Shown here piece by piece: positions 9,697-51,865 of a stretch of DNA of 64,000 nucleotides (position 1 is its first letter; every line of letters begins with the position of its first letter). Source of the DNA: a virus. The notes under the pieces were generated by a model, which was given only the letters and a program-made list of their open reading frames with translations, had not been told where the DNA came from and did not search any database. The translations under genes were made by a program, and so were the position numbers. The stretch spans positions 42,060 to 106,059 of the IMG/VR virus record IMGVR_UViG_3300009499_000148. One strand, given 5' to 3'.

Positions 9697-10790
9697 GATT
9701 GTGCTCGTTTTAATGCAGTGATGATTTTCTGACGTGCTAAATCAACATCATCGTACGACCATACAATAATAACATTATATCCCATTTTTTCAAGCTCTAA
9801 AACCCTTCTTCTATCTACATCCCACTTTTCTGATGCAGAGTACCCGAATCCTTTGACGATATCATCTGGCTTAAAGCGTAAAGGAGTTGCATGAACATGG
9901 TCGCCATAAAATTCAACAATGACTTTTTTTTCTTCATTGAGCTCATCGACGATTTTGCTTTTAACATGTTGCTCTGGTACAAACCCTAGCTCGTCCATTC
10001 CGATTAAGCTTCGCATTTTTTGATGAAGCTTTGAGAGACGACATCCTGAACGGGACGTCTTTAAAAAGGCCTCAAGCTTTTCTGGATTATCTGCAAAATA
10101 CTGTTTCATTTTGGCAGATATCTTCGCACGCTTTTCTGGTTTAGAGTTCGCTACCCTAGTCGCATCAGCATGATGTTTCTTTTTTTCGACATCAGAGTAT
10201 GCTGCATTCACTGATGCTACTCTTTTTTCTCTAACATCAGGGCGATTTTGCGCTTCTTTTTGTGCATTGGAGCGCTTCTCTTTCATCTCTGGCGTTGCCA
10301 TCATTTCTATCATTTTTTTATGATAGTCTTCATTTAACCATAACAACTTAATTCTATTGCCGACTTTTTCTCGTCTAGTCGGGTCGTCGATATACACCTG
10401 TTTTTGTGCATCACTTCGTCGTTTTTTTACATCTGGACGAGCATTAGCTTCATCAATTGTGCGACGAAACTCATCAGAATTGTAGTACGCCTGTCGAGAA
10501 GCTCTCTTCTCAGGATTAGCATGTTGTTTTATGGCTGATAAGCTACGTTGCTTTCTAACCTCTGGCTGTGATGCATACGTTTTTGTAGCAATTCGTCTAC
10601 GTTCTCTTGATGCTGGGTCGTGGTTTTTAATATGAATCGCTAGACCGTTGCTCGTCTTGAACAGCCTATCACAGATAGGGCACTTAACATCGATGTTCTG
10701 CATTGCATGCACATGCTTCATGTGAATGCGGAGCCCCTTTAAAGAAGAAAACTCTCTATTACATTTTTCACAGCACAGATTGGAGGACAT
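9693..10790 (-). mobile_element. Homing endonuclease: two C2H2 fingers + 17-aa repeats + DUF559-like nuclease
   Basis: CEKC..H..H, CPIC..H..H; VDE..IVEFYGDHVH; GYNVIIVW. Confidence 0.8.
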
Positions 10791-11667: not shown

Positions 11668-12386
11668 CACTTTAAGAACCCTCTTGCTCTGACCAAATTG
11701 ACTGTCGCAAGCTGTTTTCTCTCTGCCCAATCCCTATCATCAACAGAACAACTCCTGATGCGATACAGATAACACACATCTGGGATGTATTTTCTTACCT
11801 TCGCAACCGTCAATAGTGGCAACATGAGAGATTGATCGTATCCCCTTTGAAACCACACACTCTTGTTATCCTTGAAGTTATCATCAGATATAGAGTTCAA
11901 CAGACGAGCGTCGAACGTTCTGAGATGTGATGAGCACCACGGCCACTGATATGGATTAACGTTCTGTGGCATCTCCCTTGAGATGTTTATGTCATTGATG
12001 TCCCACCGGTGTGCTGTCCATGCCACGGTATCGGGCTGTGAGTGTGCATCCTTCACCAACCTGACGGTCTCAGTGTTGCAGAGCTGGTCATCGCCGTCAA
12101 TGATTGCGATTATGTTTCTGTCTGCATCATTGTTGGCGATGATTGTACGTGATGCATGAATGATGTTATAAAGAGCATACATCCTGCTTGACCCAAGAAC
12201 GACAGCAATCCTACCATCAGACGCCATGGCCTCCTTTAGAGCATCTCTCGTGTCGTCAGTCGAACAATCGTCTATGAATAACGCAGACCAATCTGCGTCA
12301 GATTGCGCCTTCAACGATTGCACCAGGTCGTGGATGTTCGGAGCAGCATTATAGCATGGAATGATGAACGTTAACATATGTTTCAT
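11667..12386 (-). CDS. Glycosyltransferase family 2
   Basis: IIPCYN, IDDCSTD, IDGDD. Confidence 0.9.
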   Translation of the reverse strand: MKHMLTFIIPCYNAAPNIHDLVQSLKAQSDADWSALFIDDCSTDDTRDALKEAMASDGRIAVVLGSSRMYALYNIIHASRTIIANNDADRNIIAIIDGDDQLCNTETVRLVKDAHSQPDTVAWTAHRWDINDINISREMPQNVNPYQWPWCSSHLRTFDARLLNSISDDNFKDNKSVWFQRGYDQSLMLPLLTVAKVRKYIPDVCYLYRIRSCSVDDRDWAERKQLATVNLVRARGFLK

Positions 12387-22099: not shown

Positions 22100-22781
22100 T
22101 CACCAGAGCACTTCAAGCTCTCCTTTCATGACACGAGCTAAAGTTGCTTTCTTTCCTGTGATATGGTCATTCACAACATCATCTCGTTCTCTGTAAGTCC
22201 GACGCTTATCGCCGCGGGCTCCACAACCCACCATTTGTTTTCTATCAGAACTTAACTGTTGTGAAAATGATGTATCATGAATTTCTTTAAGACGTCTTTC
22301 AAGCTCATTCCATGCATTTGCTCTATTTTGTGCTTGTGAACGCTCGTTTTCAGATCTAACTTGTATTCCAGTCGGACGGTGTGTTAATCTACATGCAGTT
22401 GATGTTTTATTTCTGTTTTGGCCGCCCTTACCGCTTCCTCTCATAAAAGCTTCATCAACATCACTTGGATTAAGTTTAAATGTGCTTTTCGCACCGTCTT
22501 TAATAACAGCAACCGTGACAGTTGATGTTTGCACTCTATCTCTCTTTTCAGTCGGCGGAATTCTTTGCCATCTATGGCCGCCTGTTTCATTCTGAAATGA
22601 TGCATATGCACCATCGCCCTTCACTTTAAGAATGATTTGCCCATCATGCTCAAGTCTTTCAATGACGCTAAAGACGCCTCCGAGAACAAAACTTTTCATA
22701 CATCGCTGCCATATCCTGCGCTAATAATTTTGCATCTTGGCCGCCTTCTGCCGCCCTAATTTCAACCGCTATGATATCCAT
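22100..22781 (-). CDS. RF1-type peptide chain release factor lacking domain 1, expressed by +1 frameshift (join 22781..22671, 22669..22100; 226 aa)
   Basis: Frame 0 MDIIAVEIRAAEGGQDAKLLAQDMAAMYEKFCSRRRL* with RBS AGGGAG; +1 frame has GGHRWQRIPPTE (PxT), GSGKGGQNRNK, ERSQ..N, RTY. Confidence 0.9.
22667..22681 (-). promoter_or_regulatory. prfB-type +1 frameshift cassette with UAG: GGAGG CGT CTT TAG C
   Basis: Internal SD, 3-nt spacer, CTT slippery codon, stop, C; same geometry as prfB AGGGGG TAT CTT TGA C. Confidence 0.9.
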
Positions 22782-23056
22782 GTTATCTCCCTGTGTCAAT
22801 GGAACATGTCCCATTGACTCGTCGTATCACTCTAATGCATTGATTATCTGTAGATGATAATCACATAGTCATAAAAATCGATGACTTGGAGTGTGTCAGG
22901 TGAAACAGAAGCTAAAATACGGGTGGGTCTTCATCTGAAGATGAGAGCGCAATATTCTTTGCATTAACTTGCTTATCTTGTTCAAGTTCATCATACGCTT
23001 TCATCATTAATACAATTTAAGTATAAAGTACGGTAAATAACACTACTGAAAAAAAA

Positions 23057-23348
23057 TGGAGCTGCCGGCGTTTGCAAGCCGGGTCCAAAAGACTTAGAAG
23101 CGATGTTCATTCACAGGTTTGGTGGGCTAAGCCCACGTTCCGTTGAAACAGATATGTGTCATAGCATTAACCCAAGCTAGACGGGTCTTTGCTTCGTTTA
23201 TCGGGTGTGCAAAGAGACCCGATGAATCACGCCGCGAGGCGTAGTTCAGATTCGAAATCGTTGCCGATTATCAATGTTGTCTTCTTAAGGGAAAAGACGG
23301 CCCACCTGCACATCGTATCATCATCCTCTGTCGAAACTTATCAGCCCC
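23057..23348 (-). ncRNA. ssrA: tmRNA; tag (A)GNDFESELRLAA* at 23265..23227
   Basis: 5' GGGGCTGA..TTCGAC, 3' T-arm plus CAGCTCCA with G3:U70; ATAATC before the resume codon; LAA-TGA. Confidence 0.93.
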
Positions 23349-23354
23349 AAAGAA

Positions 23355-23564
23355 TTACTCTGTCGCGGCGGCCTTCTTGGCCTCTGACACCGTCAACTGC
23401 ACAAGGTCATGGGCCTCCTTCTTTAGGACTCGAAGGCCCTTGCGAGCTCTGACTCCGGCTGACGAATTACCCTTAGCGTTCTTCAGGACGTCATCCTCAA
23501 TCGAAGCCACAAGGACCTTGAGTCGTTCCCACTGTTCAACAATCACTGCATTAGGTTCCTTCAT
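23355..23564 (-). CDS. Histone H1-like (Hc1-type) small protein
   Basis: KGNSSAGVRARKGL; GGAGG RBS before the ATG at 23564. Confidence 0.75.
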   Translation of the reverse strand: MKEPNAVIVEQWERLKVLVASIEDDVLKNAKGNSSAGVRARKGLRVLKKEAHDLVQLTVSEAKKAAATE

Positions 23565-23730
23565 TTTTGCCTCCTGCGTTCTTCTGACGCTTTTCACTAT
23601 ACACCCATGAGCGTGGGTTGTAATGTCTCGTTTTTTAAGCTCATCTTTTGTTTCATCACTGCGTCTCCATGACGGCCATCTCGACACACATTTAGTTGCA
23701 GATGAAAGAACGCTTAAAAACAACTTTTGT

Positions 23731-24699
23731 TCATTTTTTTGTCTCATATTTCAACTTGTTCATGCTTTCTTTTAGTTCATCACTGATTTTATTAAAGCTT
23801 TCTTTTGAAAAATCAGTGATTCTCATCAATGAAAAACCCAACTTCTGTGCTAGCTCTGTTTTAAGCTTATCATTCAAAGCGATGCCCATTACTTTTGAGA
23901 TATGCTTAGCACTAAATTTTTTATCAATGCAATGCTGAACATCATGCCAACACTTACCGTCGATTTCAATCAACAAATTAAGTTGTGGAATATAGAAATC
24001 GTATAATTTCCATGCTTTACGTCCTGATTGTTTTGTGTATGCAATCCTATACTGTGCTACGTAATTTATACGTTCATTTAATAATTGTTGTTCAAACATA
24101 AATTCTGGAAACGATTTAGCTTTCTTTCGATATAGAGAAAGCTCTGATTCTGACATGATTTTATTGTCTAAAATCTGCTTAATGACCTTTTCTTTACTTA
24201 AAGAAACGATTGATACTATCGTGGGAATTGATGCTTTTTTTGTTAAAAGTTCGTTTATTTTTAAGACAGTAAGTCTGTCTACTTTAATGAAACGTCCGTT
24301 GTTCGGGCCTGCCGTATTACCGAAGTTATTTTCTGGCTTATACGATTTGTTCTTTGCACGTGTTATAAGCATGTTTTTTATGCTTGTTGGATTGAGCATT
24401 GGGCTTTTCCAATCTGGATTGTTGGCCCTCCATGTCTCAACTTGACGTTTTTTTCTATCATTTTGGTTAACAAGCAACGAACAAATTTTTCCTCTTGTTT
24501 CTTTTAACACGTGCTCATCAACACAGTTTTTGAGTATTCGACGTATGATACCTCGATTCGTATTATAGCGTTTCGCAATATCATCCATTTTCATTAGATG
24601 ATTAACGTATAAATCAACGATAACACATACATCATCATCTGTTAATGTAGATGTAGTCTTACGAAAAAAACGTTTACTGAATATTTCTGTTAGCTTCAT
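23731..24699 (-). mobile_element. Homing endonuclease (HTH + DUF559/Vsr-like)
   Basis: SFPE, YDFYI..LIEIDGKCWH, ND..K..A...GF; AT-rich. Confidence 0.8.
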
Positions 24700-26339
24700 G
24701 CTTTCTTTAGTGCTTTTTTGAATGACTCTGGAAACATATTTTCATGCTGTTGATAGAACTTTTCCCAATTGCTATCCAAAATGTATGTGATTGCGTGGTC
24801 TGTTTCATTTCTAATGCTTCTACCAACAGACTGTATGATTGTTTTTGCAGTCTGATACGGATACCACAGTCTATTTTTTGTCATACGCTTTTTTGTGAGA
24901 GGGTCCCCGAGGTATGGAAACGGTATCTTACACAGGATTTGGAATCGGCTCAGCTCATCCTTGAGGTCAATTCCCTCTGACAGGGATGGTGATAGAAGAA
25001 TCGTCGGTTTCGATGACGCCGCGTGTTTCGCAATCATTTCTTCACGATTGAAGCTATCATGCATCAGCAAACGGCTGCTTTTCACGTTTCTCTTGATGTA
25101 GCTTGCGATTTTATACGACTGACAGTGGATGATTCCCTTGTCTCCCTTGTGTTGCTCCATGATTAGCTTCACCATTTCTGCAAGCTTCGGGAGTGTCTGG
25201 TCAATCGTCGACTGTGCCATTGCACCTACTGGCGCGTAGTAAATCGGTCTATTCTCAATCGGAAACGGTGAGTCTATCGACAAAAAATCGACCTCATCTT
25301 GTCTGAGGCCGAGCGTGGCACAGAACACGTCCTTATCAACGATTGTCGCTGACATCATCAGTACGCGTCTGCCGTACGATAACAGTAGGTCATTCGTGTA
25401 TGGGCTGACATCGACTGGTTTGAACTCAAGCTTCTTGAGACCCTTCTCTTCGCTTTCAACGATGCTCATCACCCAATTGTCATCAGACCACATCTCCATG
25501 AACCGATGCATCTTACAGATGTGCTTATCAAGTAGCTCAATCTTAGATGATATCATCTCAAAGTCCTTGAGCTTATCCTTCATATTCAACTTCAAAATCA
25601 TCAACTGTGCCTGCTCTAGATGAGCAACTGCTGCTGGGATGTAGGTCGTCCTCAGCCACTCAATCATCTTCGTCGGATTCGATGTTGATGGCCATTTCAG
25701 CTTAAGCGTATCCTTCGCGAATTTCTCTGAGACAGACGTTTCAACGAACTTGCTCAGCTCTGATTCAAGGTTATGGCATTCATCTAGCACAAGTAGCTCT
25801 CGTGGCTTAAGCTTTCCTCCGTATTTCGTCTCAGCCATGAAGTATGAATAGTTTGTCGTCCCTTCCTCTGAATCAATAAACAACTTCTTCTGACGCTTGT
25901 AGCAACAGTCTGTCGTGCATTTGCGCCAAAATGCGCTTCCCTGCGTCTCGTTCTTCACAAGTCGTTGGCTTTCACCACATGTGTTTCCAGTGTAAAATTC
26001 ACATTTGTAGTTGCTCGCCGACTTGATTGACTGAAGCTCACCATTCGGTGGCCCAAAATCATGTACGTACTGTTCTTGTAAGACTTTTTGTGTCGTTAAG
26101 ACGTAGGTACCGGGCACGTAATCATCATTTGGAATGCGAATTGAGTTCAAATATCTACCGACAGTTAAGCCAATGGCAGACTTTCCTGTTCCTGTCCCGA
26201 GCTCTGCTATTACATAACGTTTGTTGCTTTTAAGAAATGATGAAAGAATAAAGTTGATTGCTTTTTCTTGTGTATCTCTGGTAATTGAAAAAGGAAAAAA
26301 ACGCTTCCATTGATAATCTGTATTCATTTTATTATTCAT
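24696..26339 (-). CDS. DinG/XPD-like SF2 helicase
   Basis: GTGTGKS, DECH, SAT, EGID, QSVGRSIR; Cys cluster. Confidence 0.9.
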   Translation of the reverse strand: MNNKMNTDYQWKRFFPFSITRDTQEKAINFILSSFLKSNKRYVIAELGTGTGKSAIGLTVGRYLNSIRIPNDDYVPGTYVLTTQKVLQEQYVHDFGPPNGELQSIKSASNYKCEFYTGNTCGESQRLVKNETQGSAFWRKCTTDCCYKRQKKLFIDSEEGTTNYSYFMAETKYGGKLKPRELLVLDECHNLESELSKFVETSVSEKFAKDTLKLKWPSTSNPTKMIEWLRTTYIPAAVAHLEQAQLMILKLNMKDKLKDFEMISSKIELLDKHICKMHRFMEMWSDDNWVMSIVESEEKGLKKLEFKPVDVSPYTNDLLLSYGRRVLMMSATIVDKDVFCATLGLRQDEVDFLSIDSPFPIENRPIYYAPVGAMAQSTIDQTLPKLAEMVKLIMEQHKGDKGIIHCQSYKIASYIKRNVKSSRLLMHDSFNREEMIAKHAASSKPTILLSPSLSEGIDLKDELSRFQILCKIPFPYLGDPLTKKRMTKNRLWYPYQTAKTIIQSVGRSIRNETDHAITYILDSNWEKFYQQHENMFPESFKKALKKA

Positions 26340-27172
26340 TTTTTAGTAAAAGACTTTAAAGAACTTTGTATAAACACAACATCTGCATCTAGCAATGCAT
26401 CTTCAAAAGACACTTTTTTGAAATCTAGCTCTGTTAAAACAGAAAATGTTATGTCTTTTGATTCAAAGAACTTTTTAGCTGCTTTCCATTTTTCGCAATC
26501 TGGAGATTGATTTTTCTTTACAACCCATGACTGTTTAATTTCATATACTGATTTAGTTTTTTCTATGTAGAAGTCTATTGTGTATGTTCTTTTTACGCCG
26601 TTCAATTCATAATTGACTTTAAAACATTCTTGCTTTATATCATTCAATGAAAAGCCATTATTCTCTAGGTGTTTTATAAATGAATACTCTAACAAGCTTC
26701 TAAAAAAACGACCCTTATAATAACCTTTGACAGAGCGACCACCCTTTTGATAAACTTTACCAAAAGCAGGATTCTTTTCACCTTTTGTGTTATTTGAAAA
26801 TTTTAATCTAATTTCTCTAGCTTTATCAATTCCGTGGATTTCTTCTAAAGTTTTTCCACGAAGCGACTTATTGTAATTAACTCGAACAGCTCTAGCAACT
26901 TCTTTTTGATGAGTCATATCAGCTGCTAAGATTGCTTTACTTAAAGTTTGTTTATATTCAGACATTTTTACGTCTGCATATTCTTTACCATGTTTTTCTA
27001 AAACATATTCATACCATGGTTTATGCGGGTTGAAACCAATTTTTCTAATACCTTTTGCATGTTGCCATGCATTAGAACATGATTTATTACAAAATCTTCT
27101 TTTATCACAACGCCGAAGACGTCGTTCTTTACCACAAAACTCACAATTAATTATTTTCCAAAATTTACTCAT
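26336..27172 (-). mobile_element. TnsA-like PD-(D/E)xK homing endonuclease
   Basis: FRSLLE, YTIDF, YEIK, KWKAA, LTE; N-terminal CxxC; AT-rich. Confidence 0.75.
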
Positions 27173-27216
27173 GTTATTAAATATGAGTAAGGAACTGATT
27201 GTGGTTCTTATGTTCT

Positions 27217-27825
27217 TTAAATTATTGAGTCAATCGCACCGAGCTTCTTTGCCTCTTCGGCAGAGATGTACCTATCACGCGTCGGTCCGTCGCGGTCATA
27301 TAACTTTCTAACATTCTCAAGCGTTAGGCCAGTCTCAGCAGCAAAACATGAATCATATTTGTCTTCCTGCTGTTCAAATGCCTGAAGTGATGCGCGCATC
27401 TCAAAGATGTTTCCGTGGATGTGGTCCCATCCACAGTGGTACATCATCTGTGCATTTTTCCCCATCTTTCTTTCACCCTTCTTTCCAGCAGCAAGAAGAA
27501 GACAACCGGCAGACATTATCTTGCCAAGCCCGACAGTGTGAATTGGTGTTGAGACGTATTTCATCAAATCATACAGCATGAATGTGTCATACACGTCGCC
27601 ACCGTATGTATTAATAATCATTGTGATTGGAGACTTTGCATCACGTTCTGATAGAGCAATCAACTTCTCTGTCGTTGAACGTATCATCTCTTCATCGATA
27701 TCACCGACGAGGTAAATCGTTCTACTATCCTCACCACCCTCTACAACTTGTTCAGCATCGAATTGCTCAAACTCACGCTTTCGTTGCCTCGTCTGTTGCT
27801 TTCTGTTCTTCATAGTAAGTTTCAA
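27217..27825 (-). CDS. clpP: ClpP-like protease subunit
   Basis: INTYGG, IMSAG (Ser), MYH (His), RDRYISAEEAKKLG. Confidence 0.9.
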   Translation of the reverse strand: MKLTMKNRKQQTRQRKREFEQFDAEQVVEGGEDSRTIYLVGDIDEEMIRSTTEKLIALSERDAKSPITMIINTYGGDVYDTFMLYDLMKYVSTPIHTVGLGKIMSAGCLLLAAGKKGERKMGKNAQMMYHCGWDHIHGNIFEMRASLQAFEQQEDKYDSCFAAETGLTLENVRKLYDRDGPTRDRYISAEEAKKLGAIDSII

Positions 27826-28061
27826 ACCTCAGTGATAAGAGTGCTTCGTTGTTGGCCAGACTCTAGACGCTCAATCAATGACGTGATGTCTTGAAGATAA
27901 TCTCGATTCTCAAGCTCTAATGCTAACAAAAAGATGATTTTAAGCTTTTCCTTTTCAGAGACGCCGAAATCAATCAGTGTTCTAACGATTTGCCTGCATT
28001 TAACATTATGCTCTGCGCTATCTTCTTCTGTCGTTGTGCCGTAATGTTTTACATCAGACAT
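27822..28061 (-). CDS. Hypothetical protein
   Basis: ORF with TGnTATGAT 6 nt upstream. Confidence 0.6.
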   Translation of the reverse strand: MSDVKHYGTTTEEDSAEHNVKCRQIVRTLIDFGVSEKEKLKIIFLLALELENRDYLQDITSLIERLESGQQRSTLITEV

Positions 28062-28094
28062 GTAGCAATCATATCATCCATCGATGACATTGTT

Positions 28095-28568
28095 TCAATG
28101 TTGTGGAAAGACAAATGAGTTGCTAAACGGCTCTATACGGATGCTGTTTGGGCCATCAACACGTAGGCATTTTCCACTAACAACGCCAGACACATCCTCA
28201 GATGAAAGGATGATTGTAGTGTCCCATGCTTTATTTGCGATGACCCATGCGACACACTCCCAGATTGATACATCTGCACTGTATGATTCTAAAACAGAGA
28301 TGATGTTTGAGGGTAGTGATACCTTTATATCATTTATTGAAATGATTGATGCATTGTTTTCAAGGCCGCTCAGAATCTCTGAATGACCGATGTCAATGAC
28401 ACGATGTACAACACCACAGTTATTGCATTGCGCAAACTTTGAAATGACATTGTCATTTTCATCAATCTCAGAAAACACAATGAACCGATGATAGACGATG
28501 TCTTTTCTATCACGAAACTGAGGAAGTGTGCAATGACACTCTACAAGATGTCGTATGCATGACTTCAC
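28095..28568 (-). CDS. Hypothetical Zn-binding protein
   Basis: CHC..H..CNNC. Confidence 0.6.
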   Translation of the reverse strand: MKSCIRHLVECHCTLPQFRDRKDIVYHRFIVFSEIDENDNVISKFAQCNNCGVVHRVIDIGHSEILSGLENNASIISINDIKVSLPSNIISVLESYSADVSIWECVAWVIANKAWDTTIILSSEDVSGVVSGKCLRVDGPNSIRIEPFSNSFVFPQH

Positions 28569-28852
28569 TTCTTTTCAGTGATTCGACCTTCTTTGATTGC
28601 AACGCGTAATGTTTCACTGACCTGCTTTGAGCTTTGGATGAATGCATCATCGATTGACTTACTGATGATGAAATCGAGGCCCGATAGCTTACTTTCATCA
28701 ATCGAAATCTGTTTATTTCTGATTGCATTCGTTAGATTCTTTGAAACAAGCGCTTTCGCATGTTTAAACATCAGTTGCACGGCTACATTAACATCTCGTT
28801 CAATGCTCATGCTATATCTTAAACGTTTGAGCACTCCTGTATAATAAGACAT
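28565..28852 (-). CDS. Hypothetical protein
   Basis: ORF overlaps the next gene. Confidence 0.5.
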   Translation of the reverse strand: MSYYTGVLKRLRYSMSIERDVNVAVQLMFKHAKALVSKNLTNAIRNKQISIDESKLSGLDFIISKSIDDAFIQSSKQVSETLRVAIKEGRITEKK

Positions 28853-28892
28853 GCAACGATGTTGCTACTTATCACAATCCGGGGACAGAGCA

Positions 28893-29798
28893 ATGAAAAC
28901 ACTCAAAGAAACGCATCAAAAAAAGCTAGCAATCCTGACAGAGCAGTTGAACAATAATCCAGATATCCTTCGAGAGGCAATCGACCAAAAGCAAATCGAT
29001 GATATACAACGCGCTGTTGAAAAATTGACTAGGCTGTTTTCTGCTCCTGAGTTTGAAGAGCTACAATCAATGAGAGCAGGACTCTCAAGGGCTTATGAGA
29101 ATCTGACTGACCTGTTGGCTGCTAACAGAATGACACGTTGGATGAAGCTCGGCAAGGAGCTCAAAGATGTTGGAACATTCACGACGGGTGTGATGGCATT
29201 TTTGCGACAGCTCCCACAGATAGCAATGATGATAACGAACTCTGTGAATGCTGGTGGAAACGTGAATAGAGATGAACCGATTGCACATATTTTAAGTGGA
29301 GACCAGGGCACACTCGGTAAGCTGTCATCAATCATTGTTAAGTCTCTTAGGCCAGCATCATTCTTTGGACAAAAACAGCTTCCATACGTTGATATGGAGC
29401 AGATTGCATTTGAAGTACTCGGACTGTCACTAAATCAGATTGATAAATTGAAGGAGCTTTCAACGCAATCACGTGTTGTTAAGAAAACACTCAATCCAGA
29501 GCTATTCAAATCGATTGATGATGCACTAAAGAGTCTAGGTCAGCCCTCCAAACCCGATGAAGCGAGTGAGCAGGGTCAAGAAAGCACAGTAACAAAACAA
29601 AAGCTACCCACGGTCGCTGTTGTCAAGCAAGACTTTCCTGTCATGTTTAGAGCGGCGGTCGCGAGCGCCTTTCCTGAGAGGGAGAAGGATGACTATGGTC
29701 ATGTCAAGATAGGAACACGTGAAGCTGTCGCAAGGGACCTCTTCATAAAGAACATCATTGAGTGGTTAAAAGAGCACGGTCTTATCGAGACAAAGTGA
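28893..29798 (+). CDS. Hypothetical helical protein
   Basis: Long counter-oriented ORF; TACTTA motif upstream. Confidence 0.65.
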   Translation: MKTLKETHQKKLAILTEQLNNNPDILREAIDQKQIDDIQRAVEKLTRLFSAPEFEELQSMRAGLSRAYENLTDLLAANRMTRWMKLGKELKDVGTFTTGVMAFLRQLPQIAMMITNSVNAGGNVNRDEPIAHILSGDQGTLGKLSSIIVKSLRPASFFGQKQLPYVDMEQIAFEVLGLSLNQIDKLKELSTQSRVVKKTLNPELFKSIDDALKSLGQPSKPDEASEQGQESTVTKQKLPTVAVVKQDFPVMFRAAVASAFPEREKDDYGHVKIGTREAVARDLFIKNIIEWLKEHGLIETK

Positions 29799-31064
29799 TG
29801 CTCCATCAAATGATTTCATGATGCTCGTTGCGTAATGAATTGCAGAACCGATGATTATTGCAGATGATTCATCCTCTAGAATGCCATCAAGCAATGAGAT
29901 GTCGTAACCGCTTATCTTTTGACGTTGAACGACCCCGTATTTAAGCATCGAACGAATCACCTTCAGCCCGATGTCTAGGTCATGCATCATCTTACTACCC
30001 AACGACCCAGCATCAGACACACGTATCACGACTGACGCACCCGTCAATGACCTGACGCGTTTGTCAAGTATCATTCGTAGCGCAGGAATCTGTTCATCGA
30101 TGCGTCGTTGAATGAGATTTTGTAGATGTGGTTTAATACCGTTTGTGCTTGAGCTTGAAATGATTGTTGTTGAGCCAGTGCATGTCACATTTTGGACCGT
30201 TGGAAGCTCATCATACTTGATTTGTGATATGACGTCACCCTTTAGCGATGATACAACATCACAGCCCGCAACCATCGCAACATCAATGAGCACATTTGCT
30301 GTCTCAAGCCCAAACTCAACGACGACTGGGACGACGTTCAGTGTTTTACGTGCATAATTGACGTTGAGCGTTGATATGACATCACGGCTGAACCCCCTAG
30401 CCATGATGACCATCGGTCTCTTAAGCTCATGACTACGTTGCAACATGTGGTCAATCTCTGACACATTCTCAATCGTGCCGTCAATCAGCGCTAGCTTAAC
30501 ATCAGATGCGAACCATCGTCCGTTTTTAAGAAATGATGCATTTGCACCGATGTTGAACATATGACCCATCAATAGTTCAACCGTGTTCGTCCCTGTCGTT
30601 GATGGTTCTATGAATATCTTACAATCACTTCCTGCCAACGCTATTGCCTCTTCAAGCATTCCAGCAACATTTGGCACGGTGCTTCTTAAGCGTTCTTTAA
30701 GAGCGACAGATGTCGTTGAACATGAAAATTCATCAATCATATGAAGCAATTCATCATATGATTTTATGATGCTAGCAGTCGAAAGCTCTGACGTGATGCT
30801 GTTCTTTAATAGCCTAATGAGATGCTTGCTTGATGTAGGAGCGACAATCTCACTTTTTTTACATGCATCAATGATGATTGAGCGAATGATGCTCTGTGAT
30901 TCAGGAGCACGACTTAGCACGCTCAACACAGCGTATGCATCATTCATAACGTCTATCGAGCCATCTGGCATTCGCATGACAGTGAGGCCACCGTGTGTCA
31001 TCGCTTCAAGCTCATTAACGACGATTGATAACGCTGATTTAATCTGTTCCTTGTCAGACAGCAT
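29766..31064 (-). CDS. Divergent GroEL/Cpn60-like chaperonin
   Basis: Apical-domain match IDGTIENVSEI..RPMVIMARGFS.DV..TL.VN; RVRSL.G. Confidence 0.75.
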   Translation of the reverse strand: MLSDKEQIKSALSIVVNELEAMTHGGLTVMRMPDGSIDVMNDAYAVLSVLSRAPESQSIIRSIIIDACKKSEIVAPTSSKHLIRLLKNSITSELSTASIIKSYDELLHMIDEFSCSTTSVALKERLRSTVPNVAGMLEEAIALAGSDCKIFIEPSTTGTNTVELLMGHMFNIGANASFLKNGRWFASDVKLALIDGTIENVSEIDHMLQRSHELKRPMVIMARGFSRDVISTLNVNYARKTLNVVPVVVEFGLETANVLIDVAMVAGCDVVSSLKGDVISQIKYDELPTVQNVTCTGSTTIISSSSTNGIKPHLQNLIQRRIDEQIPALRMILDKRVRSLTGASVVIRVSDAGSLGSKMMHDLDIGLKVIRSMLKYGVVQRQKISGYDISLLDGILEDESSAIIIGSAIHYATSIMKSFDGASLCLDKTVLF

Positions 31065-31076
31065 GATAAATCATAA

Positions 31077-31148
31077 CGCGCCCAATGGGATTTGAACCCA
31101 TGACGTAGCAATTTAGAATTGCGTGTTCTACCGCTGAACTATAGGCGC
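31077..31148 (-). tRNA. Amber suppressor tRNA (anticodon CTA)
   Basis: GCGCCTA/TGGGCGC acceptor, GTTC/GAAC D-stem, GCAA-TT CTA AA-TTGC, ATGGG TTCAAAT CCCAT T-arm. Confidence 0.85.
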
Positions 31149-31492
31149 TAAGCAAACGAATTTCCACAACCACACGTCGTGGATGCATATGGATTAATGA
31201 ACTTGAATCCAGTTCCTGATAGACCCATGATGTAATCAATCATCACTCCCTCTAGATGCATCGCAGATACTGGGTCGATATACACGGTGATTCCATCATG
31301 CGTTGATACAATGTCATCATCGTTTTTGTTTGAAAAATCAAGAACATACTCAAACCCAGCACAACCGCCTCCTCTGATTCCCACACGTAATCCATCACCG
31401 ACTACGTTCGGTTCTAGCATGAATTCTTTTATTGCAATGATAGCCTTCTGCGTGATTGTGATTATCTCATTGCTGTTTTCGCTTTCTTGCAC
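31148..31492 (-). CDS. iscA: IscA/HesB Fe-S cluster carrier
   Basis: GGGCAGFEY, CGCGNSF; probable GTG start. Confidence 0.9.
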   Translation of the reverse strand: MQESENSNEIITITQKAIIAIKEFMLEPNVVGDGLRVGIRGGGCAGFEYVLDFSNKNDDDIVSTHDGITVYIDPVSAMHLEGVMIDYIMGLSGTGFKFINPYASTTCGCGNSFA

Positions 31493-31796
31493 GTGCCTCT
31501 TCCTTATACAATCGATTGAGTTGTTCTTGTCTGTCAAGCTGTATCGCAGTGAGACGGCGCTTGCTGATATCGTGTCTCTTTTCGGCTGCAACGACAACGT
31601 TAGACATACGCTTAAGCATTGCGTCTATTGCTCGTATAACGTTTATTAGGACAAGCAGAGCACTCTTCTCAAAGCCCCTTGACTGTGCAACATCCTTATA
31701 CATCGCCTTGAGTGTGCCATCAGCATCAAGCGACGACTGCATGCCATCTAACAGCTTACGAAGTGCGTTAGCACGTTCTTGAAATGATGCACTCAC
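31467..31796 (-). CDS. Hypothetical coiled-coil protein
   Basis: ORF. Confidence 0.55.
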   Translation of the reverse strand: MSASFQERANALRKLLDGMQSSLDADGTLKAMYKDVAQSRGFEKSALLVLINVIRAIDAMLKRMSNVVVAAEKRHDISKRRLTAIQLDRQEQLNRLYKEEARARKRKQQ

Positions 31797-41787: not shown

Positions 41788-42355
41788 TTGCTAACCTCAA
41801 AAACGTACCATTGACAATCGATGAACCCTTCACAAAGAGTTCATCAAGGTGCTTCCACATCTCAGCCTCAATAACACCCTCACCAGAGCATCTACCGCGT
41901 AATTCTGCCTTGAACGTGTCCCATTCTCGTGAATACATTGAAAATGAACCAGCACTTTGTACAGACGTCAATGACCTCACTGACTCTCCAACATTAGCAA
42001 TCCTGTCAGCTAGTTTCACCGTTATTGCGTCTGGCGTTGCCCTGATTTTTGGGTATGTCAGCTCTTGACGTTGCTTGCGTGTTGGTGCAACATGATATGA
42101 GACAGCTCCGACTATATCAGCGACATAATCACCGAATGCAGAACGAACATCATCAATCGATGTCTCAGTGTCTTCAACAACATCATGCAACCATGAAGCG
42201 TCTAGAAGACCCTGTGATAGCTTACTTCCCGCAAAACATCTCATTGTATACACGGTATCGAAAAGATGAAATTGATAAGGCTTATCACCGTACTTTTGTT
42301 CGCCGTGTTTTTCAATTGCGAACCGAGCCGCAGCGCCAACCAAAATAAGCGTCAT
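41768..42355 (-). CDS. HD-domain hydrolase (SpoT/Mesh1-like)
   Basis: H..Q....PY..H, LHDVVEDT, KLADRIAN. Confidence 0.85.
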   Translation of the reverse strand: MTLILVGAAARFAIEKHGEQKYGDKPYQFHLFDTVYTMRCFAGSKLSQGLLDASWLHDVVEDTETSIDDVRSAFGDYVADIVGAVSYHVAPTRKQRQELTYPKIRATPDAITVKLADRIANVGESVRSLTSVQSAGSFSMYSREWDTFKAELRGRCSGEGVIEAEMWKHLDELFVKGSSIVNGTFLRLANGQVSG

Positions 42356-51086: not shown

Positions 51087-51094
51087 ATGCGACA

Positions 51095-51167
51095 TGCTTC
51101 AGATGGGACTCGAACCCATACGACCCGGCTTCTCGAACCGGTGACTTTACCATTTGTCCACCGAAGC
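51095..51167 (-). tRNA. tRNA-Leu(GAG), short variable arm, C33
   Basis: Loop TC GAG AA. Confidence 0.7.
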
Positions 51168-51170
51168 AAA

Positions 51171-51795: not shown

Positions 51796-51865
51796 AGCCG
51801 TGGGTATGAATTGAACATACGACCTATCGATTAATATCGATTGCTCTACACTGAGCTACCACGGC
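51796..51865 (-). ncRNA. Thr-like tRNA body with collapsed anticodon loop
   Basis: GCCGTGG/CCACGGC; ATCGAT-ATTA-ATCGAT. Confidence 0.65.

Follow-up and report, generated by a model that had tools for sequence, protein, structure and literature searches.

A UAG-gated RF1-like gene, a candidate amber suppressor tRNA and an amber-gated PTH2-fold gene in one standard-code phage contig

We analyzed a window of viral DNA, 64,000 nucleotides long (positions 42,060 to 106,059 of the IMG/VR record IMGVR_UViG_3300009499_000148), which lies within a 106-kb viral contig estimated to be 29% complete. The window contains a gene for an RF1-like release factor that is interrupted by a frameshift cassette with UAG as its stop codon, a tRNA gene with the anticodon CUA (tRNA(CUA)), and a gene for a protein of the PTH2 (peptidyl-tRNA hydrolase) fold whose second codon is TAG. 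A sequence-only reading of this DNA had proposed that the tRNA and the factor compete at the UAG of the cassette, so that the suppressor would repress synthesis of its own competitor while scarcity of RF1 would induce it, and that the phage could in this way set the meaning of UAG over the infection cycle or compensate for loss of host RF1. The positions of these features, and of the others discussed below, are collected in Table 1.

Table 1. Features of the window and their positions, counted from the first nucleotide of the window
Feature	Position	Strand	Description
Release-factor gene, first open reading frame (ORF0)	22781-22671	minus	ATG at 22781; 37 codons, the last being the slippery CTT
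Frameshift cassette	22681-22659	minus	GGAGG-CGT-CTT-TAG-C, then CGT CAT TGA in frame 0; read directly from the sequence
Shine-Dalgarno (SD)-like element	22681-22677	minus	GGAGG
Spacer	22676-22674	minus	CGT
Slippery codon	22673-22671	minus	CTT
Gate stop codon	22670-22668	minus	TAG
Nucleotide after the stop	22667	minus	C
Frame-0 continuation	22667-22659	minus	CGT CAT TGA
Release-factor gene, +1 frame	22669-22100	minus	189 codons and TGA; PPT (PxT) and GGQ; no release-factor domain 1
Upstream ORF	22912-23007	minus	31 codons, between the tmRNA and the factor gene
Transfer-messenger RNA (tmRNA)	23054-23348	minus	Rfam RF00023, 51.1 bits (gathering score 47); directly upstream of the release-factor gene
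Gene without Pfam match	29766-31064		432 aa
tRNA(CUA)	31077-31148	minus	ARAGORN; Rfam tRNA, 63.9 bits (gathering score 29)
IscA-like gene	31148-31597	minus	TAG stop at 31148-31150
PTH2-fold gene	46805-46395	minus	GGAGG-tagtg-ATG-TAG-GGT; TAG at 46802-46800 is codon 2, followed by 134 open codons
tRNA-Leu(GAG)	51094-51168	minus	ARAGORN; isoacceptor reading CUU
tRNA-like gene	51796-51865	minus	ARAGORN 'Asn|Stop (tt)'

The translation of ORF0, MDIIAVEIRAAEGGQDAKLLAQDMAAMYEKFCSRRRL, opens with MDIIAVEIRAAEGG and closes with RRRL, and its 3' end reads CGG AGG CGT CTT TAG C in codons. ORF0 corresponds to positions 106-138 of the prfA profile and also matches the PCRF domain, and the +1 frame corresponds to positions 156-333 of the same profile. 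Since these profile positions run consecutively across the two frames, a continuous factor is reachable only by a +1 shift. Decoding of the UAG in frame 0 leads into CGT CAT TGA and yields no release factor, as the sequence-only reading had stated; the product is the 37-residue peptide with three further residues. The components that it had named (the UAG cassette, the RF1-like +1 frame and tRNA(CUA)) were likewise confirmed, by the sequence itself, by profile searches, and by ARAGORN and Rfam. The promoter and terminator scans gave signals at background level only.

The layout of the cassette resembles that of bacterial prfB (SD-N3-CUU-UGA-C), with which it shares an internal SD-like GGAGG, a 3-nt spacer, CUU followed by U, a stop codon followed by C, and a product that continues in the +1 frame. 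In both cases the gate stop is one that the encoded factor reads, which for the phage factor is a prediction. However, the stop is UAG and not UGA, and it is located at codon 38, in domain 2 and within the PCRF match of an RF1-like gene, whereas that of prfB is located at codon 26 in domain 1. The products also differ, in that the phage factor is RF1-like and lacks domain 1, and most members of the phage family have UGA gates, which a PxT factor should not read. Judged from its layout, the cassette would work like that of prfB at a position that is not homologous to it.

Next, we consider what kind of release factor is encoded. The +1 frame contains GKGGQ and matches the Pfam RF-1 domain with an E-value of 6e-26, and the GGQ motif is conserved through the family. 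The sequence RIPPTEKRDR of the factor, which includes the PxT motif, aligns with RVPATESQGR of Escherichia coli RF1; RF2 has SPF at this place, and reading of UAA and UAG through PxT is established for RF1. The NCBIfam scores (175 bits for prfA and 119 bits for prfB) and the comparison with the chains of solved structures (E-values of 1e-34 for RF1 and 1e-20 for RF2) point in the same direction. The architecture is not that of a full-length RF1, given that the protein begins at position 106 of the 347 in the prfA profile and that its 175 bits compare with a cut-off of 400. By these matches the factor is a short RF1-type paralogue without domain 1, and not prfA. PrfH and ArfB are also short proteins that have a GGQ domain and no domain 1, but the phage factor reaches only 71 bits against the PrfH cut-off of 167 and 37 bits against the ArfB cut-off of 100, and unlike both of them it retains a complete codon-recognition domain with PxT. 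From the PxT motif alone, it is predicted to act at UAA and UAG.

A gene that is known from a single metagenome assembly and that would be annotated as two ORFs might be a product of sequencing error or a gene in decay. However, the independently assembled GenBank metagenome contig L221 is 99.75% identical to window positions 22369-23555 without any gap, and dozens of diverged relatives share an identical SD-N3-CTT-stop arrangement at this codon, with both halves of the gene conserved as protein. An artefact or a pseudogene is thus effectively refuted. Because the same codon is used recurrently in relatives and because the independent assembly is free of gaps, we take the cassette to be programmed, and not the result of chance or of an assembly error.

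We compared 40 viral relatives of the factor, which are 38-56% identical to it, and found a cassette at the same codon in 24 of them, a probable one (L024) being counted in. The shift occurs at SD-N3-CTT-TGA followed by C, G or A in 21 loci in addition to the probable one, and at CTT-TAG in two (L035 and L039). In three others (L006, L008 and L027) the shift uses CTT-TAG-C and takes place at a second site, some 15 codons further down, 12 loci have in-frame stop codons in place of a shift, and the factor gene of one locus (L007) is uninterrupted. A scan of metagenomes for the UAG form yielded 39 contigs with 32 distinct genes, all of which have an ORF0 with EIRAAEGG; the stop is followed by C except in three contigs. 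Seven UGA and six UAG cassettes were found among 17 loci from metagenomic genome bins, which are mostly myxobacterial. The bins of these loci (L237-L253) are Byssovorax, Kofleriaceae, Nannocystaceae, Polyangia and a few other phyla, and there are no tRNA genes near their factor loci, apart from one in L248. The second-site cassette, TGC-CTT-TAG-C (positions 9854-10080 of L027, and also L006 and L008), has no SD and is non-homologous to the usual one. In L027 an in-frame TGA is also present at the usual cassette site, and the low-GC phages to which these three loci belong do not use TGA as a stop within the 20-kb loci. The factor genes of L029/L030/L022, L034 and L031 have two in-frame stops each; the second stop column is TGA in L034 and L031 and TAG in L029, so that a stop as such seems to be conserved there.

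The decoding loop, GGHRWQRIPPTE(K/R)xGR(V)(Q/H)TS, is near-invariant regardless of the gate codon, which indicates that the gate codon is not matched by a change in the factor. In a maximum-likelihood tree, UAG cassettes occur at three separate places: L035 is the sister of a UGA member (support 97/85), L039 is the sister of L014, which has an in-frame TAG at the identical position (support 89/89), and the factor gene of the window stands alone. This suggests that the gate codon has switched repeatedly. If PxT means reading of UAA and UAG, then the UAG cassettes would be self-regulating, and the commoner UGA cassettes would instead report on host RF2.

In the window the tmRNA, for which ARAGORN gave no call, precedes the factor gene, and the 31-codon upstream ORF between the two ends in Pro-Pro-Val-Phe-TAG, so that the leader of the factor gene holds a second UAG. 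A tmRNA also adjoins the factor gene in L006/L008 and L009, and is found on the same contig in the relatives G003 (at 11-12 kb) and G005 (at about 9-12 kb). The tmRNA and the factor gene form one translation-rescue neighbourhood. This arrangement is one of several that would suit a cassette acting as a constitutive attenuator, which sets a fixed ratio of product without any sensing, with the stop as a mere pause of near-neutral identity and any effect of the suppressor as incidental noise; the factor may then not be specific for UAG and could be a rescue factor that works with the adjacent tmRNA. Such an attenuator would also explain why the loop is identical under UGA and UAG, most gates of the family not being cognate to a PxT factor, and why gate codons switch freely on the tree, and the lack of domain 1 recalls PrfH and ArfB. 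However, TAA is never the gate in the cassettes examined, which fits selection for a codon that is read by one host factor. In addition, the C that follows the stop in most cases is the weak-termination context used by prfB, and the almost invariant PxT and GGQ motifs argue for real stop-codon recognition. A purely constitutive device is improbable in our view.

The second element, tRNA(CUA), has a complete cloverleaf that covers positions 1-71 of the Rfam model, with a 7-nt anticodon loop (TT-CTA-AA) containing U33, CUA at positions 34-36 and a purine at position 37. It has G73, a G1-C72 pair, a variable loop of 5 nt and a normal D loop, has no encoded CCA, and is not similar to pyrrolysine tRNAs. 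We infer from the anticodon that it is an amber suppressor and that it is active as such. The closest tRNA in the compared set is the CUA tRNA of the relative G017; the suppressor tRNAs of different phages are not orthologous, and only these two are alike, in their acceptor and T arms. The exact 19-mer of the anticodon arm occurs in no other viral contig. The gene lies 8.3 kb upstream of the factor gene on the same strand, and the genes listed between them encode an IscA-like protein, an unknown protein of 432 aa, ClpP, a TnsA-like nuclease, a helicase and an Hc1-like protein. The first base of the tRNA also belongs to the stop codon, TAG, of the IscA-like gene. We also considered the 432-aa gene directly downstream of the tRNA as an adjacent client, and rejected it on finding no early TAG.

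The third element, the PTH2-fold gene, surfaced via a scan for early in-frame TAGs and sits, behind a strong SD, within the tRNA array of the window; a search with the Pfam PTH2 profile across the whole contig had given no match. An AlphaFold2 model of the protein has a predicted local distance difference test (pLDDT) value of 81. When this model was compared with the PDB by Foldseek, the top 13 matches were all PTH2/Bit1 peptidyl-tRNA hydrolases, with probabilities of 0.95-1.00 and target-normalised template-modelling (TM) scores of 0.42-0.69 (0.57-0.69 for crystal structures). According to the model, the product has the PTH2 fold. Similar genes with an early TAG are present in the relatives: in G003 and G004, PTH2 genes opening with ATG-TTC-TAG and ATG-AAG-TAG are preceded by tRNA(CUA) at a distance of 110-140 nt. 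We compared 20 viral relatives of the G004 gene. In 19 of them TAG follows the ATG after one to four codons and no further ATG intervenes ahead of the domain, and in 18 a tRNA(CUA) is found within 1.5 kb. This recurrent association of an early TAG with a nearby tRNA(CUA) suggests that the suppressor belongs to an amber-gated PTH2 module. The window shares with the modules of G003 and G004 the PTH2 fold, a UAG soon after an SD-preceded ATG, the tRNA(CUA) and the standard code. It differs from them in that the tRNA is 14 kb off and not adjacent, the TAG is at codon 2, an internal ATG is available as a possible start, and the protein is a distant member of the family (19.6 bits). A tblastn search with it against the fetched genomes found no relatives. 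To judge from these comparisons, the gene is a likely client of tRNA(CUA), and its product is probably made only when the phage tRNA reads the TAG at codon 2.

If the phage carries a suppressor, then the question arises whether UAG has been reassigned in its genome. With the standard code, 85% of the 106-kb contig falls within ORFs of at least 100 aa, and the 102 ORFs end with TGA in 64 cases, TAA in 27 and TAG in 11. Seven ORFs of this size on the main coding strand terminate at TAG, and the read-through extensions past these seven stops have a median of 2 codons. No gene or domain split by TAG was found in the 106 kb, where in-frame segments on either side of a TAG turned out to be distinct genes, and the PTH2-like gene is the only recognisable gene that needs TAG as sense. 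There is thus no sign of genome-wide UAG reassignment, and the contig uses the standard code. An apparent gain in ORF coverage with TGA as sense in G001 and G003 received no support from counts of in-frame fusions, and was attributed to noise from spurious ORFs.

A code change might still be hidden in the roughly 71% of the genome that is not in hand, if late genes there have in-frame TAGs. In that case the tRNA and the factor would make up a code-change module, whose cassette would shut off the RF1-like factor once UAG is sense. Recoded gut phages are known to have suppressor tRNAs, release factors and early genes in the standard code (10.1101/2021.08.26.457843), the contig represents 29% of the genome, and TAG is the rarest stop in it. 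However, RF2 is the factor carried by TAG-recoded phages and RF1 that of TGA-recoded ones (10.1101/2021.08.26.457843), so that a factor of the RF1 type opposes a reassignment of TAG. Furthermore, the 106 kb show no TAG-split gene, TAG ends the seven main-strand ORFs mentioned above, and standard-code phages with tRNA(CUA) and an amber-gated PTH2 gene are common. We regard a hidden code change as very improbable.

We then asked whether the cassette UAG and the suppressor go together, and scanned the whole contigs of relatives for suppressor tRNAs with ARAGORN. Because relaxed thresholds gave mostly false positives, they were used solely to establish the absence of CUA in G002 and G001. A tRNA(CUA) accompanies the UAG shift of the window's contig and the in-frame UAG of G017 (98% complete). 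The UAG shift is present without a suppressor, relaxed thresholds included, in G002 (complete, 198 kb) and in G001 (25% complete, 40 tRNAs). Conversely, tRNA(CUA) was found together with a UGA shift in G003 (45%) and G014 (complete), and with an in-frame UGA in G004 (39%). G005, a complete standard-code genome of 436 kb, combines a UGA shift with two tRNA(UCA). Five genomes that are each at least 90% complete (G008, G013, G016, G022 and G037) have a UGA shift and no suppressor. Neither G035 (29%), which has an in-frame UGA, nor G032 (96%), which has in-frame UGA and UAG and in which about 80% of stops are TAA, has a suppressor. In sum, tRNA(CUA) occurs with two of four UAG gates and three of 10 UGA gates, so that there is no association (one-sided Fisher test, p about 0.45). 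We also analyzed 220 kb of sequence flanking the 32 distinct metagenome UAG cassettes, and none of the 77 tRNAs in it is a suppressor. In two genomes with second-site UAG cassettes (G029 and G010), a pattern scan for CUA loops matched only tRNA-Arg(UCU) and one sub-threshold element. The sub-threshold element, in the complete genome G029 (L027, positions 11998-12064, plus strand), is a 67-nt tRNA-like sequence whose D arm is reduced and whose loop reads CUA(A). It is located some 1.5 kb downstream from the factor gene and was missed by Rfam and by default ARAGORN.

Two of these relatives are described here in their own right. G017 (locus L014) is a 467-kb standard-code phage or provirus, whose factor gene (L014, positions 9860-10540) has an in-frame TAG where its sister L039 has a CTT-TAG shift; its tRNA(CUA) (G017, positions 195861-195937) is located 13.5 kb from the factor gene, and no PTH2 match was found in it. 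In G017, the factor itself may be the amber-gated client. The two tRNA(UCA) of G005 (positions 139122-139296 of the L012 contig) are of normal length and, together with the tmRNA, lie about 9-12 kb from the UGA-cassette factor. The layout of G005 is the opal counterpart of that in the window.

The sequence-only reading had treated independent occurrence of the two elements across relatives as grounds for abandoning its switch, and independent occurrence is what we found. Its coupling of suppressor and factor holds in one respect, since competition at the cassette UAG is unavoidable and suppression there ends two codons on, and fails in the other, in that no co-inherited design is seen across the relatives. 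For a suppressor-factor switch as that reading proposed it, the comparative support is negative.

The same observations bear on a stronger proposal, namely that the cassette changed from UGA to UAG because a suppressor was present, and that a double-negative loop flips UAG between stop and sense in the infected cell. In such a loop the suppressor would repress the RF1-like factor, and the factor would repress read-through into the PTH2-like gene and others. The proposal draws on the presence of three UAG-dependent parts in one 64-kb window, on the dead-end product that results from suppression at the cassette, on G017, whose in-frame TAG at the cassette position is combined with a tRNA(CUA) of similar acceptor and T arm, on the UGA cassette of G005 with its two tRNA(UCA), and on the repeated changes of gate codon in the family. 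However, UAG cassettes occur without a suppressor in one complete genome and in 32 metagenome versions, and three genomes combine tRNA(CUA) with a UGA gate. The coupling would also have opposite signs in different phages, given that the suppressor would lower the factor in the window and is needed for it in G017, where the factor requires UAG read-through; this argues against one designed logic. In addition, unrelated genes fill the 8.3 kb between tRNA and factor. We consider an evolved loop of this kind unlikely, although less so than the alternatives discussed above. A three-part circuit, in which tRNA(CUA) would repress the factor and turn the PTH2-like gene on while the factor would repress itself and block codon 2 of the PTH2-like gene, seems similarly doubtful to us. 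If it were true, then the mutual antagonism would let an otherwise standard-code virus switch the meaning of UAG in a bistable or timed fashion, as a natural one-codon toggle made from a release factor and a suppressor.

We instead favour the explanation that two separate devices, each of which reads UAG, coincide in the window, to which we assign a probability of roughly 55%. The first would be the cassette. By analogy with prfB, when CUU is in the P site with GGAGG three bases upstream and UAG-C is decoded slowly, the peptidyl-tRNA would slip to UUU; the phage tRNA-Leu(GAG) would occupy the P site during the slip. Quick decoding of UAG, either by RF1 or by tRNA(CUA), would compete with the slip and abort synthesis of the factor. 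The UAG version of the cassette would thus provide negative feedback on the total capacity for UAG termination. The second device would be the suppressor tRNA, which would read the UAG at codon 2 and turn the PTH2-like gene on. Since the cassette here is UAG, tRNA(CUA) must decode it too, and ribosomes would be diverted to the dead-end peptide and the level of the factor lowered. The factor, if it reads UAG, would in turn lower read-through into the PTH2-like gene. We lean towards the view that this cross-talk resulted from a switch of the cassette from UGA to UAG in this lineage, and does not represent a conserved, co-inherited switch. Suppressor tRNAs are reported to compete with the +1 shift of prfB, in work by Curran and Yarus in 1988 and Adamski et al. 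in 1993 (references 46 and 44 of PMC12421855).

Several observations weigh against the explanation by two separate devices. As for the factor, two residues that make contacts in RF1 are changed, the stacking His to Gln (VQTS) and the helix-5 Glu to Asp (GGQD), so that its codon specificity stays a prediction. As for the PTH2-like gene, a direct test of the protein against the Pfam PTH2 profile gave an E-value of 0.0011 and 19.6 bits, which is below the curated cut-off. The gene might also start after the TAG, since codon 24 is an internal ATG and the model shows residues 1-20 as disordered. L197, its closest and only viral relative, lacks both an early TAG and a neighbouring tRNA, and G014 has two PTH2 genes without TAG in spite of its tRNA(CUA). 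With about 29% of the genome in hand, TAG-containing late genes are possible. Finally, the sample of complete genomes is small, and two of the four UAG-gated factors that were fully examined (those of the window and G017) do have a tRNA(CUA), with shared acceptor and T arms.

Apart from these elements, we noted the tRNA-like gene at the end of Table 1. It has a 6-nt anticodon loop, TATTAA, between palindromic stems, and may represent either a tRNA that is defective or an unusual decoder of the UUA type.

It has been reported that none of 8,164 bacterial prfB motifs surveyed has TAG and that no programmed shift is known for prfA (PMC12421855). A review from 2016 called an RF1/UAG counterpart unknown, and mentioned only a giant-virus factor as requiring recoding (PMC5009743). 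The one case described so far of programmed frameshifting that senses a release factor is bacterial RF2 at UGA (PMC12421855, PMC5009743). The giant-virus case is the release-factor gene of Megavirus and Mimivirus, which is reported to need a frameshift and read-through (PMC3521657; cited in PMC5009743). It resembles the phage factor in being a viral termination factor that depends on stop-codon recoding, and differs in that it is of the eukaryotic type, belongs to viruses of amoebae, uses other signals and has no suppressor tRNA as partner. The code-change modules of stop-recoded gut phages reported by Borges et al. consist of a suppressor tRNA, a release factor and an aminoacyl-tRNA synthetase, RF2 being found with TAG recoding and RF1 with TGA recoding, and frameshifting is not mentioned in that paper (10.1101/2021.08.26.457843). 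The window is similar to these modules in that one phage genome carries a suppressor tRNA and a class-I release factor that have been proposed to shape the meaning of a stop codon. However, no recoding is detectable here, the RF1-like factor opposes tRNA(CUA) rather than complementing it, and the elements are independently distributed. The component elements are unusual and do not appear to have been described in the literature searched, in which amber-gated PTH2 genes were not searched for.

The phage family would carry on an RF1-like factor the same kind of device that is known from prfB, with UGA, UAG or in-frame stops as gates, and the genome of the window combines this device with an amber suppressor and an amber-gated gene. 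The meeting of these parts at one codon makes, even if they are independent modules, a compact natural system for competition between termination, suppression and frameshifting. Such a system could show why standard-code phages keep suppressor tRNAs, and may offer parts for UAG-responsive genetic switches.

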